DNA of 64,000 nt from Dictyostelium discoideum (GCA_000004695.1 CM000150.2:2560001-2624000); one strand, 5' to 3'; positions 501 to 24,480 are shown, counted from the first letter of the stretch. Notes: generated by a model from the sequence alone, not told the origin. Translations and numbers: made by a program.

Positions 501-505
501 AAAAT

Positions 506-578
506 CGCCCAACGGGGGGCTCGAACCCCCGACCACCAGATTAAGAGTCTGGCGCTCTACCGACTGAGCTAGCCGGGC
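506..578 (-). tRNA. tRNA-Lys (anticodon CUU)
   Basis: The reverse complement reads GCCCGGCTAGCTCAGTCGGTAGAGCGCCAGACTCTTAATCTGGTGGTCGGGGGTTCGAGCCCCCCGTTGGGCG. It has a 7-bp acceptor stem (two G-U pairs), the D-loop AGTCGGTAGA, anticodon loop CTCTTAA (CTT at positions 34-36), T-loop GGTTCGAGCC, discriminator G, and no encoded CCA. It is near-identical to eukaryotic tRNA-Lys(CUU). Confidence 0.9.
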
Positions 579-861
579 ATTTTTATATTTATAAAAAAAT
601 TATAGCATCTATTTAGCTTCAATTTTTTGTTTAAATGATGATATTTTTCCCTCACGAACATCATATTTTTTAAATGAAAATGATGTTAATACAACAATCA
701 AAAAAATCAGAAATATTAATATTAACAATAAATTTGGAAAAATTTTCCAAAAAAAAAAATTTTATTTTTGAATTCAAAATTTTGAATTTTTTTTTTTTTT
801 TTTTTTTATTTTTTTTATTTTTTTTATTTTTTTAATTTGTCATTCTCTGTAATACAACAAA

Positions 862-5963: not shown

Positions 5964-6797
5964 ATGGAAAAAGAACAAGTTTGGTATATTACAGGTTGTA
6001 CAAGTGGATGTGGATTAGCATTGGTTGAGAAATTATTAAAGATTAAGGGTACAAAAGTTGCAGGAACAACAAGGGATTTAAAAAAGATTGAACAATTATC
6101 AATTTATAAGGATCAAAATTTTTTAGCATTACAAGTTGACTTGGTAAATAGTAAATCAGTTGAAGAATCAATTGAAAAAACAATTAAACATTTTGGAAGT
6201 ATTACTCATGTTGTAAATAATGCAGGCTTTGCTTTAATGGGTACTGTTGAAGAGGCAAGTGATAAAGAGCAAAGAGAGCAAATGGACGTTTGCTATTTCG
6301 CTCCATTAAATGTAATTAGATCAGTGTTACCACACTTTCGTTCAAAATCACATGGTTATATCTTTAATATTGGCTCTGGTGCTGGGTTTAGAGGTATAGC
6401 TAATTTGGGTGCTTATTCCGGTTCAAAATTCGCAATCACTGGTATTACCGAGGCATTACATGAAGAGGTTAAACAATTCTCTATTAATGTATCAACTATT
6501 GTTTTAGGCTATATTGAAACAGATTTCCATGAAGCAATTCCAGTGGCTAAAAATTTAATTGATTGTTATTCTACCCAAGCTTTTAGTGAACAGCGTAAAG
6601 AAAATTTAAAGAAAATTATTGGTGGTGATCCACAAAAAGTTGCTGATGTTTTAATTGATTATTCATACAAATCAAATTTACCTTTTAATATTTTCGTTGG
6701 TCCAACTAATCATTTCAATAATATTGAAACAAGAGCTAAAGAATTATTAAATCAAATTCAATTACAAAGAGAAAAAAATAATGTTCAAAAATCTTAA
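5964..6797 (+). CDS. Short-chain dehydrogenase/reductase (classical SDR), 277 aa, single exon
   Basis: ITGCTSGCGLAL (TGxxxGxG NAD(P)-binding), NNAG, and the catalytic S..YSGSK (YxxxK) motifs are all present. Confidence 0.85.
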   Translation: MEKEQVWYITGCTSGCGLALVEKLLKIKGTKVAGTTRDLKKIEQLSIYKDQNFLALQVDLVNSKSVEESIEKTIKHFGSITHVVNNAGFALMGTVEEASDKEQREQMDVCYFAPLNVIRSVLPHFRSKSHGYIFNIGSGAGFRGIANLGAYSGSKFAITGITEALHEEVKQFSINVSTIVLGYIETDFHEAIPVAKNLIDCYSTQAFSEQRKENLKKIIGGDPQKVADVLIDYSYKSNLPFNIFVGPTNHFNNIETRAKELLNQIQLQREKNNVQKS

Positions 6798-7415
6798 TTA
6801 TTAAAAAATAATAAATAAATAAAAAAAAATAAAAAAATAAAAAAAAATAATAATAATAAAATTTTGAAATGTATATATCTATTTTTTAATTCTTTTTTTT
6901 TTTTTTTTTAAAAACTTCTAGGTTTTTTTAAACAAGTTTTTTATTTTTATTTTTTTTGGTTTGTTCAAACAAATATTTTTATATATTAAAAAAATAAAAA
7001 GTAGATATATACATTGTCAAAATAAAATAAATAATAAATAAATAATTAAATTTTAAAATATATTAAATAAAAATGGTTAAAAAAAAAAAAAAAAAAAATT
7101 CATAAAAAAGAATGATTACATTCATTTTTTTTTATACATTATATCATTGTGTATGTATTTATTTATACTAATTTCATATTAAAATTAAATCATTGATATA
7201 AGTAAAAATAAAATGGAAAATAAAAATTTTAGTTTTTTTTTTTTTTTTTTTTTTTTTGTCATTTTTGGTTCTTGTTTTTGCCAATATTTTTTTCAATTTT
7301 TTTTTTTTTTTTTTTTTTAATTTTTTTTTAATTTTTTTTAATTTTTTTTTTTTTTATTTTTTTTTATTTTTTTTTTTTTCTTTTCTCAAATCAAAATACA
7401 TATAAAATACACACA

Positions 7416-7916
7416 ATGACAAAAACAGATGATATCCCAATTGTTTTCATTGAAAAGAAAAACATTCAAGAAAAGATTCTTGAAATTGATGTAGATAAAA
7501 AACATAAAGAAAGAATTGCAAAATCTTACGAATATATTGTTAATGCAGATAAAACATGTAAAGAACACCTTTTACTTCAAGAAATTTTGGTATGTTTATT
7601 TAATCAATCAGAAATTAATCATAGTAATAAATAAATAATAATAATAAACAATAATAATAAATAATAGTAATAAGTAATAAATAATAAATAATAAGTAATA
7701 ATAACTATATAAAAATAGTGATTTAAATAGTGATATTATTAAATCAATATCAAATTATCTTTGTTTATTAATTATTAATATCATCATCTTTTTTTTTATC
7801 AAATTTTTAAGGATCAATGCTTTTTCAAACAAAAACAATCATATATGAAGAATTGTAGACCAATTGTTATGGAATATTTAGATAAAATTTCAAAGATGGA
7901 CGAATCTCGTTTTTAA
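7416..7916 (+). CDS. Hypothetical small protein (92 aa); exons 7416-7589 and 7812-7916
   Basis: ORF MTKTDDIPIVFIEKKNIQEKILEIDVDKKHKERIAKSYEYIVNADKTCKEHLLLQEIL, then donor GTATGT at 7590. The 222-nt AT-rich intron ends TTTTTAAG at 7811. Exon 2 DQCFFKQKQSYMKNCRPIVMEYLDKISKMDESRF* is in frame and stop-free. No domain recognised. Confidence 0.35.
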
Positions 7917-15961: not shown

Positions 15962-16334
15962 TTTGTTAAAAAAAAAAAAAAAAAAAAAAGATATTTTGTG
16001 TGGGAATAAAAAAAAACTGAAAAAAAAAAAAAATCAAATGCTTGTGTCAATGTGAAAAGTTATAAAAAGCCAACTGTTTTTTTTTTTTTTTAATCTGAAA
16101 GCTATTTGTATTAAAATGAGTTTACTAAATATATAAAAAAATAGTTTTTCATAGGTGTATGACAGATATAGATAATTTCCAAAATTAATGAAAGTATTAA
16201 TTGTAATGCTTCCTTAATGTTTTATTTAATAATAATAATAATTATAATAATAATCATCATTATAGTAATTTAAATTAATTAATTATATGTTTATTATTAT
16301 TTTTTTTTTTTATTATTATTTTTATAAAATTATT

Positions 16335-21653: not shown

Positions 21654-22156
21654 TTAAATGACTTTTAATGGATCAGTATCTAATTTTGAAACTATGACTT
21701 TAATACGACCATTAAATAATTTTTCTAAATTTGGTTTTAAAATTTGTGGAAGGTAATCTCTTTCAGAATTTGAATGATCACAAACAATGACATAACTTCC
21801 TTTAGCACAAGCATCTAAAATTGCATGATGAGTTAATTCACCAGTTAAATAGAGATCAGCTTTTGCATTGAAAACTACAGAACCACCACTACCTGCACAT
21901 AAAGAGATAGTTTTAATCTTTTTAGATTCACCACTTAATGGTCTACCAATTCTAACATATTCAATATTGAATAATTCTTTAACTCCTTTTACAATTACAT
22001 CAATATCAATTCCATCATCATCTAATGTAACTAATTTACCTGAACCATTATTTAATGATAATACTTTTTCTTGATTTATAATATCCCAATTTTTAATTTC
22101 CTGTAAAAAAAAAAAAATATGTTAATAAAAGTTACAAATAATTAAATAATTAAATA

Positions 22157-22237
<81 letters not shown>

Positions 22238-22918
22238 TACATTTGAAAATGATTTAATTAAATTAATTAAAATTAATAATTGTTGTTGATCACAAGATAA
22301 TTCAATTTTATCAGTTGAATAGAATTGAAAATTTGAATTTAATTCTAATTGTTTTAAGATTTCAGCTGTGAGTGGTTGATTGGTATGTAAATAGATTGAA
22401 ATCTTTTGAGTGGATTTCAATGATTCTTGATAAGGTGTAATTGGTTTTGATCTACCTTTACCAGAGTTTAATTTAATTAAAGCATTTGAAATCCAATCGT
22501 TTAAACCACCATCACAAGAATCTAAGGCGGAATGTGGTGAATAAATTGGTATTCTATTCTCAATTGATTTAATTGCAATTCTTTGTGAAATTGATTTTTG
22601 GTTAACAGTTTTAAATTGGTTGAATAATGGTGGATGATATGATATTATGAAACTTGCTTTCTCATTGATAGCCTCTTGTAAAACTGGTTCTGTTAAATCA
22701 TTAGTAAGAAATATTCTTTCGATATCCATTGAATCTGTATTACTTGGTTCAACTAATAATCCGACATTATCCCATTTCTCTGCTAAATTTAATGGTATTA
22801 ATTCTCCTAATTTCTTTAAAACTTCTTTTCCTTTAACTGAGTTTGTTGTACTTGACATTCTTTTAATTATTTTAAATTGTTGTTGTTGTAATTTAAAAGT
22901 TTTTGTTAAATTAAACAT
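21654..22918 (-). CDS. NIF3 (NGG1p-interacting factor 3 / YbgI) family protein; exons 22918-22241 and 22100-21654
   Basis: Exon 1 has the N-terminal NIF3 motif EKWDNVGLLVE and ISYHPPLF. A 140-nt intron (GTAATT..TTTTTTACAG, phase 0) consists almost entirely of (ATT)n. Exon 2 encodes the C-terminal NIF3 half (..ISLCAGSGGSVVFNAKADLYLTGELTHHAILDACAKGSYVIVCDHSNSERDYL..). Confidence 0.85.
22160..22236. repeat. (AAT)n microsatellite (about 25 units) forming the NIF3 intron
   Basis: Seen directly. It translates as the poly-I artefact at the end of the 22142..22918 track ORF. Confidence 0.9.
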
Positions 22919-22933
22919 TGAAATTTAAAATTT

Positions 22934-23020
<87 letters not shown>

Positions 23021-23247
23021 TTAAAAAAAAAAAAAAAAAAAAAACATTGAGCAAATTGAAGTTCTCCGCATCTCAGTAACTAATTTTATATGGGTAAAAA
23101 TTTCCGTTTTTTTTTTTTTTTGACAATCAATTTTATTTATTTTTTAATATGGATTTATTATAGATAAATAGAACACCCAAAAATACACAAAATGATATAA
23201 AATATAAAAAAAAAAATAAATATAAAAATTCTTTTTTTTGAATTTTT

Positions 23248-23560
23248 CTAAGGTTGGCAGGCTAAAAGTGGTGAAAAGTAATTTTATGTGGAATCTTTTT
23301 TTTTTTACTTTTGTTTTCTGTGCAGCTCCCTTGAACATTTGAGTGCACAAAAAATGATATAAAGTGAATGTAAACATTCTTTTTTTTTTCTAAGGTTGGC
23401 CAGATATAAAAATTTCAGCGCATGTGAAAAGTTAATTAATTTTATGTGGCGCTGGTCGGTTGTTTTACAAATCTTTTTTTTTTTTTTATATTTTTATTTT
23501 TTAATTTTTTTTTATTTTTTTTTTCTGTGCATCCACCCCTTAAACTTTTGGGTGTTATTT
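23248..23560 (+). repeat. Diverged tandem duplication of a GC-richer promoter module (copy A about 23248-23350, copy B about 23389-23560); a partial third copy lies at about 23060-23105
   Basis: Both copies begin TCTAAGGTTGGC, contain GTGAAAAGT(T)AATT..TTTTATGTGG and end with TTTTCTGTGCA[GT]C..CTT[GA]AAC[AT]TTTG[AG]GTG, with T-runs between blocks. The core TAATTTTAT[GA]TGG occurs at about 23082, 23278 and 23436. The module lies 16 bp upstream of the SDR ATG (23576), between the divergently transcribed NIF3 and SDR genes. Confidence 0.55.
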
Positions 23561-23575
23561 TGAAAGATTTATAAA

Positions 23576-24480
23576 ATGTTTAAAAATTCTATTAAAAGAT
23601 TATTTGAATTAAAAGGTAAAAATGCAATAGTAACTGGTGGAACAAGAGGTATTGGATATCAGATTGCACTTGATTTAGCCAATAAAGGTGCAAATGTTTT
23701 CGTTTGGAGTAGAAATAAAGAAGTAAATGAAAAAGCAGTTAAATCATTACCAATAATACATAACGATCAAAAACATACAGGTATAGTATGTGATCTTTCA
23801 AAAACCAATAAATTAGATGAAACAATAAATGAAATTAAAAAACAAGTTTCATCATTCAATAATGGTGATAATAAAATTGGAATTTTAGTACATTCAGCTG
23901 GTATTACACATAGTGAATTATTATTTAAAAAATCATCAAATGATAATAATAACTATAATAATAACTATAATTCAATAAATGATAATAGTAATGAAATTAT
24001 GACAACAAATTTATTATCACCAATATTAATAACACAATCATTTTTAAAAGATATGATGAGATTAAAATATGGTCGTATCATATTCATTGGTAGTGTTGTC
24101 TCTGAAATGGGTAATAGAGGTCAAACAATTTATTCAAGTTCTAAAGGTGGTTTAAATGGTTTTTCAAAATCACTCTCCAAAGAGATTGGTCAATTCAATT
24201 GTACTTCAAATGTAATTTCACCTGGTTTCATTGATACTGATATGTCACAACAATATATAAATAATGAATTAATTAATTCAATACCATTAAAAAGAATTGG
24301 TAATACAAAGGTAATTAATAATAATTAATAATTAATAATTAATAAAATAATAATAAAAAAAAAAAACTAAAATTATTAATTATTATATTTATTTAGGATA
24401 TTTCAAAAACAGCATTATTTTTAATCGAATCAGACTATATTACTGGTCAAAATATTCGTGTTGATGGTGGATTATATTAA
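23576..24480 (+). CDS. Short-chain dehydrogenase/reductase (FabG-like, 3-oxoacyl reductase family); exons 23576-24310 and 24397-24480
   Basis: GKNAIVTGGTRGIGYQIAL (TGxxxGIG), HSAG, and S..YSSSKGG (YxxxK) are present. Intron GTAATT..ATTTAG (86 nt, phase 0). Exon 2 encodes the typical SDR C-terminus DISKTALFLIESDYITGQNIRVDGGLY*. Confidence 0.85.

Follow-up and report, generated by a model that had tools for sequence, protein, structure and literature searches.

An inverted insertion and a tandem duplication in the shared promoter of divergent NIF3-like and SDR genes of Dictyostelium discoideum

Results

A shared promoter between divergent NIF3-like and SDR genes

The window analysed here, a 64-kb stretch of D. 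discoideum chromosome 1, is strongly AT-rich and contains a 657-bp intergenic region (22919-23575), the shared promoter of the divergent genes DDB_G0270854 (minus strand) and DDB_G0269356 (plus strand). The Pfam domains of both products agree with a preliminary description, made from the DNA alone, that had placed a repeat array between divergent NIF3 and SDR genes. D. citrinum, D. firmibasis and D. purpureum have the two genes in the same divergent arrangement. A literature search by gene identifier found no paper naming DDB_G0269356. The main features of the locus are:

22142-22918, minus strand, 5' exon of the gene for NIF3-like protein 1, DDB_G0270854 (Pfam DUF34_NIF3, E = 5e-35)
22941-23044, minus strand, poly(dA) tract of 104 nt (Tandem Repeats Finder)
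23576-24480, plus strand, FabG-like SDR gene DDB_G0269356 (Pfam adh_short, E = 3e-43; orthologues)
23576-24310, exon 1 of DDB_G0269356
24311-24396, intron of DDB_G0269356 (86 nt; splice sites read)
24397-24480, exon 2 of DDB_G0269356

The poly(dA) tract is a T-run on the sense strand of DDB_G0270854; it occupies the NIF3 side of the promoter and lies outside the duplication described below. Proteins encoded in the window are identical to products of AX4 chromosome 1; the 277-aa SDR at 5964-6797, for instance, is 100% identical to an AX4 protein.

Two tandem units precede the SDR start codon

Between the poly(dA) tract and the SDR start codon lie a distal block, termed a0, two tandem units, and a short leader that is present once. 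Their limits and internal blocks are:

23046-23100, plus strand, ancestral distal block a0 (CATTGAGCAAATTGAAG...TAATTTTATATGGGTAAAAA), co-linear with CAAATTGGAG...GGGGGTAAAATTTT of D. cf. discoideum (L001) and with loci L006 and L011
23081-23093, plus strand, upstream core variant TAATTTTATATGG inside a0, a 12/13 match to TAATTTTATGTGG
23185-23346, plus strand, tandem unit copy 1, 162 bp
23185-23247, copy 1 x block, which is the 3' part of the inserted segment INS (see below)
23247-23258, copy 1 junction block TCTAAGGTTGGC
23271-23291, copy 1 GTGAAAAGTAATT and the TAATTTTATGTGG core
23292-23317, copy 1 short T-run, 20 T in 26 nt
23314-23326, copy 1 TTTTCTGTGCAGC
23330-23345, copy 1 CTTGAACATTTGAGTG
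23347-23555, plus strand, tandem unit copy 2, 209 bp
23347-23388, copy 2 x block
23389-23400, copy 2 TCTAAGGTTGGC
23424-23449, copy 2 GTGAAAAGTTAATT and core
23450-23473, copy 2 CGCTGGTCGGTTGTTTTACAAATC
23474-23524, copy 2 long T-run with TATA-like ATATTTTTA
23521-23533, copy 2 TTTTCTGTGCATC
23539-23554, copy 2 CTTAAACTTTTGGGTG
23556-23575, plus strand, unduplicated leader TTATTTTGAAAGATTTATAAA, abutting the ATG at 23576 and conserved throughout the D. discoideum complex

All of the blocks previously listed were located, twice and in the order given: TCTAAGGTTGGC at 23247 and 23389, GTGAAAAGT(T)AATT at 23271 and 23424, TAATTTTATGTGG at 23279 and 23437, and TTTTCTGTGCA[GT]C at 23314 and 23521. 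The copies had been described as roughly 100-170 bp long; the duplication is real, but the units measure 162 and 209 bp and start earlier, at ACA(C/A)AAAATGATATAAA. The additional 5' sequence is paired in the repeat search, which matched 23185-23201 with 23347-23363, 23213-23239 with 23361-23387, and 23243-23267 with 23385-23409. The array had also been said to end 16 bp before the SDR ATG; the distance from its last block to the ATG at 23576 is 21 bp.

The two copies were compared by local alignment with a composition-weighted matrix and affine gaps (23170-23346 versus 23335-23566). The score of 72.3 compares with 18.7 +/- 3.3 for dinucleotide shuffles (z = 16, equalled by 0 of 300 shuffles), and the narrower limits of the preliminary description gave z = 15.7, so that the similarity stands well above background when gaps are scored. 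Ungapped identity is 88.7%, and the gaps, which make up 38% of alignment columns, fall mostly in runs of A or T. An nhmmer profile of the unit matched the window at 23186-23346 and 23347-23574, and a co-linear four-way alignment (A1) is likewise in accord with tandem duplication, as the preliminary description had proposed, rather than simple-sequence slippage. A period of 142-220 bp is absent from the Tandem Repeats Finder output; this is because the indels are too large, and it is not evidence against duplication. A blastn search of the window at word size 7 was swamped by low-complexity A/T matches and was replaced by composition-weighted alignment and nhmmer. Both units are base-for-base the same in an independent D. 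discoideum assembly, ACTFIT (L005), so the array does not stem from an error of assembly. The two assemblies differ only in the length of their poly(A) tract; some of the comparison assemblies, ACTFIT among them, may be Nanopore-based, in which case homopolymer lengths are unreliable.

Copy number varies between close lineages

Orthologous loci were taken from nine other assemblies by means of the SDR, NIF3 and ComC-like proteins, and units were counted with the nhmmer profile of the tandem unit, the sequences also being read. Two units occur in the window and in ACTFIT, that is, in AX4-type genomes, with intergenic lengths of 657 and 637 bp. A single unit is present in 'D. discoideum' ACTFIW (L006; 383 bp) and ACTFIR (L011; about 390 bp) and in D. 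cf. discoideum ACTFIY (L001; 318 bp). One-unit isolates include those of assemblies GCA_054859355 and GCA_054859385. The profile found no unit in two D. citrinum strains (intergenic length 245 bp), D. firmibasis (201 bp), D. purpureum (215 bp) or D. dimigraforme, and it gave no match in loci L002, L003, L004, L007, L010 and L012; in the last of these, from D. dimigraforme, no SDR gene was called beside NIF3 and no unit homology was seen.

In a recent study of D. discoideum strains, nucleotide diversity was reported to average only ~0.003 over genes, and cryptic species closer to D. discoideum than D. citrinum is were described; the assemblies of that study were made from Nanopore reads (10.1101/2025.10.22.684067, preprint). 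Given that level of gene diversity, lineages that have diverged by 3-5% are distinct.

In D. cf. discoideum, CAAATTGGAG..GGGGGTAAAATTTTAAGTGACGCTGGTGTTTGTTTTAAAAAGC is followed by a T-run and then TTTTCTGTGCACAGCCAACCCTTTAACTTTTGGGAGTTACTTTAAAAGATTTATAAAATG, the left end being co-linear with window 23056-23100 and the right end with 23437-23578. In a global alignment, ~340 bp of the window, lying between the orthologues of L001 GGGGGTAAAATTTT and AAGTGACGCTGG, have no counterpart in D. cf. discoideum. ACTFIW and ACTFIR show the order distal block, insertion, a single ATAAGGTTGGCCAGATATAAAAATTTCAGC, then directly a T-run and the proximal block. The TAATTTTATGTGG core beside the T-run and the CGCTGG stretch are deleted in these two lineages, and the core is changed to TAAAATTTTAAGTGA in D. 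cf. discoideum. Copy 2 is the orthologue of the single unit of the sister lineages, with 94.7% identity to ACTFIW/ACTFIR and 92.2% to L001; copy 1 aligns poorly to the ACTFIW/ACTFIR unit (75%).

The 5' part of the units derives from a segment 16 kb away

When the 5' parts of the two units were scanned against the window, the best non-self match for both was 7094-7159 on the minus strand. Extension of this match defined an inserted segment, here INS, and its counterpart:

23101-23247, plus strand, INS, ~147 bp, an inverted copy of window 7094-7219 (local alignment, nhmmer and alignment A2)
7094-7219, minus strand, donor copy of INS, between the SDR gene at 5964-6797 (plus strand) and a small gene starting at 7416 (plus strand)

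Alignment of 23101-23247 with 7219-7094 scored 59.1, compared with 41.9 for the best unrelated place, and a leave-one-out nhmmer search with a profile built from the two unit copies only recovered the donor site at E = 1e-6. The 7-kb copy has a counterpart at the orthologous site of two other lineages: ACTFIW, at L009 3296-3447 (E = 1e-10), and D. cf. discoideum, at L008 3277-3411, where E is 6e-4, or 2e-9 when the profile is built from two sequences. In L006 and L011 the promoter carries INS less a 39-nt deletion; the D. cf. discoideum promoter (L001) has no INS. Since D. cf. discoideum carries the 7-kb copy and lacks INS in its promoter, that copy must be the source and INS the derivative. 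In a five-way alignment (A2), INS retains states that the AX4 donor has lost and that the D. cf. discoideum donor has kept, which fits a copying event older than the split between the AX4 and ACTFIW/ACTFIR lineages. The last ~65 nt of INS form the first third of unit 1 and, with deletions, of unit 2; with the 3' part of INS inside both units, the tandem duplication is later than the insertion.

A ~147-bp segment that makes up the first third of each unit and has an inverted second copy 16 kb away might be taken for part of a dispersed repeat, or of a small mobile element (MITE-like, or a transposon fragment), inserted in the promoter. The preliminary description had itself raised a common dispersed repeat as the reading to guard against, and to the extent that the 5' third of the unit was copied from 16 kb away the concern was apt; yet in 153 kb of Dictyostelium DNA compared INS has one extra copy only, the donor, and the originally listed blocks have no other copy. 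The second copy sits at a fixed orthologous position in three lineages, and INS has no coding capacity, lacks terminal inverted repeats (matches at 9-11 of 30 terminal positions) and is not bordered by a target-site duplication. The flanks are unrelated, being TTATATGGGTAAAAA / CTAAGGTTGGCAGGC in the promoter and AACTAAAATTTTTAT / TTTTTTTTTTTTTTT at the donor. A mobile origin is thus very unlikely. The strings TTT(T) and CATTC are possible microhomologies at the junctions, although such short strings are expected by chance at ~80% A+T.

The blocks are probably recent copies and show no sign of added constraint

The preliminary description had argued from ordered multi-block conservation to function. 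Several features of the array would fit a functional double promoter or a cluster of transcription-factor sites under selection, with binding at the three TAATTTTATRTGG cores and at the paired blocks, and with their multiplication favoured for its effect on SDR/NIF3 expression in the AX4 lineage. Within 370 bp there are three near-identical 13-mers, out of four sites with at most one mismatch in the window, leaving one in the rest of it; the G+C-containing blocks are the best-kept parts of both copies; and the two-unit allele is found in two independent D. discoideum assemblies. Comparison with the relatives points the other way. The core is deleted in ACTFIW/ACTFIR and changed in D. cf. discoideum, and there is no alignable sequence in D. 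citrinum, D. firmibasis or D. purpureum. Promoter identity is 92% to D. cf. discoideum (92.2% for copy 2) and 93-95% to ACTFIW/ACTFIR; neighbouring introns and intergenic DNA give 95-97% and, for ACTFIW, 93-97%. Conservation of the promoter is no higher than that of neighbouring non-coding DNA, and the promoter changes at least as fast. Preservation of the blocks is, moreover, what is expected when indels gather in A/T runs.

Recurrence of the blocks in other promoters, which had been suggested as a check, was not seen above chance in the 64-kb window, where the listed blocks occur at or below shuffle expectation outside the array. The match noted upstream of the subtilase gene (TGTGAAAAGTTA, at 16051) is at chance level, with 2 matches against 2.3 expected. 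A third partial copy had been placed ~190 bp upstream; its 13-mer core is there (12/13), but the flanks do not extend the likeness, 23054-23096 scoring 18.8 against copy 2 and 21.2 at the best unrelated place. The step from block order to function is accordingly not supported: the copies are recent, the core is lost in relatives, and constraint is not raised. Block order and likeness follow from recent common descent, given two units in AX4-type genomes only, one in lineages that have diverged by 3-5% and none in more distant species. The suggestion of a duplicated promoter fares better, since the segment does include the proximal promoter region of the SDR gene. We regard a selected site cluster as quite improbable; a modest regulatory effect of the array on SDR or NIF3 could still exist.

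The age of the two-unit state

Copies 1 and 2 differ by 11.3%, about twice the difference between copy 2 and the ACTFIW/ACTFIR unit (5.3%), an excess that is not significant (Fisher p = 0.08). The excess hints that the duplication may predate the split of AX4 from ACTFIW/ACTFIR and have later collapsed there. Two histories therefore come into question: a gain in the AX4 lineage with faster decay of copy 1, or an older duplication followed by collapses.

In the second of these, the insertion and the two-unit state would be older than the split of the D. discoideum complex, and the short promoters would be collapses by unequal crossing-over between direct repeats. The divergence between the copies (11%) exceeds that between lineages (3-6%). 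The left side of the ACTFIW/ACTFIR unit (GAATTTTT) resembles copy 1 and its right side (CCAGATATAAAAATTTCAGC) copy 2; in D. cf. discoideum the left side of the unit corresponds to a0 and the right side to copy 2. Such mosaics are just what would remain after recombination between repeats. The ACTFIW/ACTFIR mosaic is, however, equally expected if these lineages keep the pre-duplication state, and the non-significant excess of divergence can be explained by relaxed constraint on copy 1. Two independent collapses would be needed, and the outgroup promoters are short. We consider this older origin possible but rather unlikely.

The units do not resemble known small RNA genes

[quoted passage not shown] Tandem small non-coding RNA genes, whether for Class I RNAs or DUSE-driven snRNA-like transcripts, were considered here in view of the minus-strand CCACATAA and CCCATATAA, which resemble the DUSE, and of the T-run in each unit, which could terminate Pol III. 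Like DUSE-dependent genes, the array is intergenic and has a C-containing octamer in AT-rich DNA with T-runs downstream. The motif is nevertheless unlike the DUSE: the units carry CCACATAA, which lacks three Cs, and these occur only in the a0 variant CCCATATAA, where ~60 nt downstream there is just a homopolymer run and no such RNA follows. Class I termini and stem are lacking. Covariance-model searches against Rfam gave no match at gathering thresholds at the array and nothing credible at E <= 10 across 22850-23650. Folding of either unit or of INS, on both strands, was no better than that of shuffles (z -1.3 to +0.8), and the units are absent or truncated in sister lineages. Such genes are hardly credible at this locus. 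The sole Rfam match in the whole window is a tRNA-Lys at 506-578.

Two other identities were tried and rejected. By eye, the unit might be taken for the SDR leader and first codons in decayed form, but alignment of either copy to 23556-23800 was at background (z = -1.0 and 0.1), and the SDR start was not among the top matches of the x-block scan. The CTAAGGTTGGC junction block as an inverted form of the proximal GCCAACCCTTTAAC block reached p ~0.03 against L001 only and was not significant against the other versions.

Copy 2 probably contains the working SDR promoter

In the T-rich run of copy 2, which includes ATATTTTTA and lies 52 nt before the ATG, 46 of 55 nt are T; the run of copy 1 has been reduced to the 20 T in 26 nt listed above. 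The proximal layout of copy 2, with TATA-like ATATTTTTA in the T-run, the non-AT block CTGTGCATCCACCCCTTAAACTTTTGGGTG, a 21-nt leader and the ATG, is common to every member of the D. discoideum complex, and for this reason copy 2 is the probable SDR promoter. A TATA-like element was not found in copy 1, and four upstream ATGs lie between its CTGTGCA and the SDR start codon, all of which a transcript begun at that CTGTGCA would include. With its T-run halved, no TATA-like element and these ATGs, copy 1 is most simply read as a decaying duplicate, a by-product of the rearrangement.

INS might alternatively be a portable cis-regulatory module, taken from the promoter of the gene at 7416 and later amplified in part with the SDR core promoter. 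It has the same orientation to NIF3 as to its original gene, at 183 bp from the NIF3 ATG versus 197 bp, a likeness of orientation and distance that is probably coincidental. We judge such a module highly improbable. If it were one, AX4-type D. discoideum would have gained a new, selectable expression pattern of NIF3 or the FabG-like reductase, and the locus would offer a datable case in which templated copying rewired a promoter inside one species complex.

Discussion

In our view the array is likely to be a structural variant, restricted to some lineages, of a bidirectional promoter and not a conserved regulatory array. In this account the ancestor of the complex had a single unit, consisting of the distal block, a T-run, the TTTTCTGTGCA..CCCTTAAACTTTTGGG block, the leader and the ATG, a form that D. 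cf. discoideum retains. In the common ancestor of AX4 and ACTFIW/ACTFIR, ~147 bp from 16 kb upstream were then inserted in inverted orientation, the ~35-nt junction block CTAAGGTTGGCCAGATATAAAAATTTCAGC arriving with the insertion. The absence of transposon hallmarks suggests that the insertion was templated during replication or repair. In the AX4-type lineage, a segment of 160-210 bp that took in the final third of the insertion, the junction block, the TAATTTTATGTGG core and T-run, and the proximal block of the promoter would subsequently have been duplicated head to tail; two units are what AX4-type genomes have today, and the timing given here is the probable one. The likeness of the blocks would be the remainder after ~11% substitution and many indels in A/T runs, the G+C-containing stretches being merely the parts that can still be recognised.

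Each of these steps has known counterparts. As in tandem segmental duplications by unequal crossing-over or replication slippage, the copies are adjacent, head to tail, 160-210 bp long and in one block order, their number varies between close lineages, and indels are concentrated in homopolymer runs. The array differs in being layered, in part a templated insertion, and in including a putative core promoter. Templated insertions and complex rearrangements can arise from replication template switching, in FoSTeS/MMBIR-type events. INS resembles these in its size (~147 bp), its inverted orientation, its origin 16 kb away on the same chromosome, its intact donor, its extra junction sequence and its lack of transposon hallmarks. 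Events of this sort, in which a tandem duplication follows a templated insertion, are already known, and no new kind of element is involved.

In the canonical Dictyostelium Pol II promoter the start site is directly preceded by an oligo(dT) run, which itself follows a TATA-like element. Similarly, copy 2 and its orthologues have a T-rich run of 40-55 nt with ATATTTTTA, then a non-AT block and a short leader, and the NIF3 side has its 104-nt T-run on its own sense strand; the copy 1 version is shortened. Homotypic clusters of transcription-factor sites would likewise present something like the three 13-mer copies within 370 bp, but the copies here come from segmental duplication and are not retained in sister lineages.

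The locus carries a caution for very AT-rich genomes, where ordered G+C-containing blocks may mimic a regulatory grammar and be the legible remains of a recent duplication. It also provides a small, well-resolved series of promoter states in close lineages, namely none, insertion, and insertion with tandem duplication. This series could serve as a natural experiment on start-site choice and on the expression of a divergent gene pair.

Donor segment and junction block of the promoter insertion

The insertion (INS) in the promoter shared by the NIF3-like and SDR genes is an inverted copy of a donor segment about 7 kb into the window, and a junction block adjoins its 3' end:

Window 7094-7219 (-); L008 3277-3411, the D. 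cf. discoideum donor locus; L009 3296-3447, the ACTFIW donor locus: donor segment of INS
Window 23248-23262 and 23390-23420; L006 2866-2899, the ACTFIW SDR promoter locus: junction block CTAAGGTTGGCCAGATATAAAAATTTCAGC

The donor segment is fast-evolving across AX4, ACTFIW and D. cf. discoideum; the five-way alignment of INS and donor copies (A2) shows numerous indels in it. A small gene begins at 7416, with the donor segment ~200 bp upstream of its start; the gene product is without a recorded Pfam match. The junction block arrived along with the INS insertion; its source was not detected in the donor locus, the D. cf. discoideum promoter or the rest of the 153 kb of Dictyostelium DNA searched.

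The x block, the INS-derived 5' part of each of the two tandem promoter units, was found to contain a short inverted repeat, directly followed by a T-run:

Window 23367-23388 (unit 2); 7-kb copy near 7105-7125 (-): hairpin with a 5-bp stem, GAATG-TAAA-CATTC

The stem is present in the 7-kb copy (GAATGTAATCATTC) and gone from unit 1.

Poly(dA) tract on the NIF3 side

On the NIF3 side, the promoter carries a long homopolymer:

Window 22941-23044: nearly pure poly(dA) tract of 104 nt, seen as a T-run in the NIF3 sense direction

The version in ACTFIT, a second D. discoideum assembly, is 19-20 nt shorter, and the D. cf. discoideum counterpart is broken by C residues. Homopolymer sequencing error may lie behind part of the length differences.

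Gene calls and coding repeats

Within the 64-kb window, the sole Rfam or ARAGORN match was a tRNA-Lys(CTT) at 505-579 (-). In D. firmibasis, a single gene model with a 452-aa EF-Tu/eEF1A-like product covers the entire 8.9-kb locus (L003 1-8893), several other genes included, which suggests either faulty annotation or an extremely long intron. In D. dimigraforme, no SDR gene call adjoins NIF3 on its upstream side (L012 1560-2500), the next gene call (154-aa product) being ~870 bp from NIF3; the divergent pair may be broken there, or the SDR may be present but unannotated.

A long poly-Ile stretch, (ATT/AAT)n, precedes the stop codon of the NIF3 ORF at window 22142-22240 (-). Since annotated NIF3 proteins are 354-374 aa, the mechanical ORF list has most likely read through a trinucleotide-repeat intron here. 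The Rossmann-fold SDR carries an internal repeat:

Window 23930-23990, SDR codons ~120-138: Asn-rich insert NDNNNYNNNYNSINDNSNE

Its length and sequence differ among D. discoideum, D. cf. discoideum, D. citrinum and D. firmibasis, a variation typical of the coding-repeat expansion of Dictyostelium.
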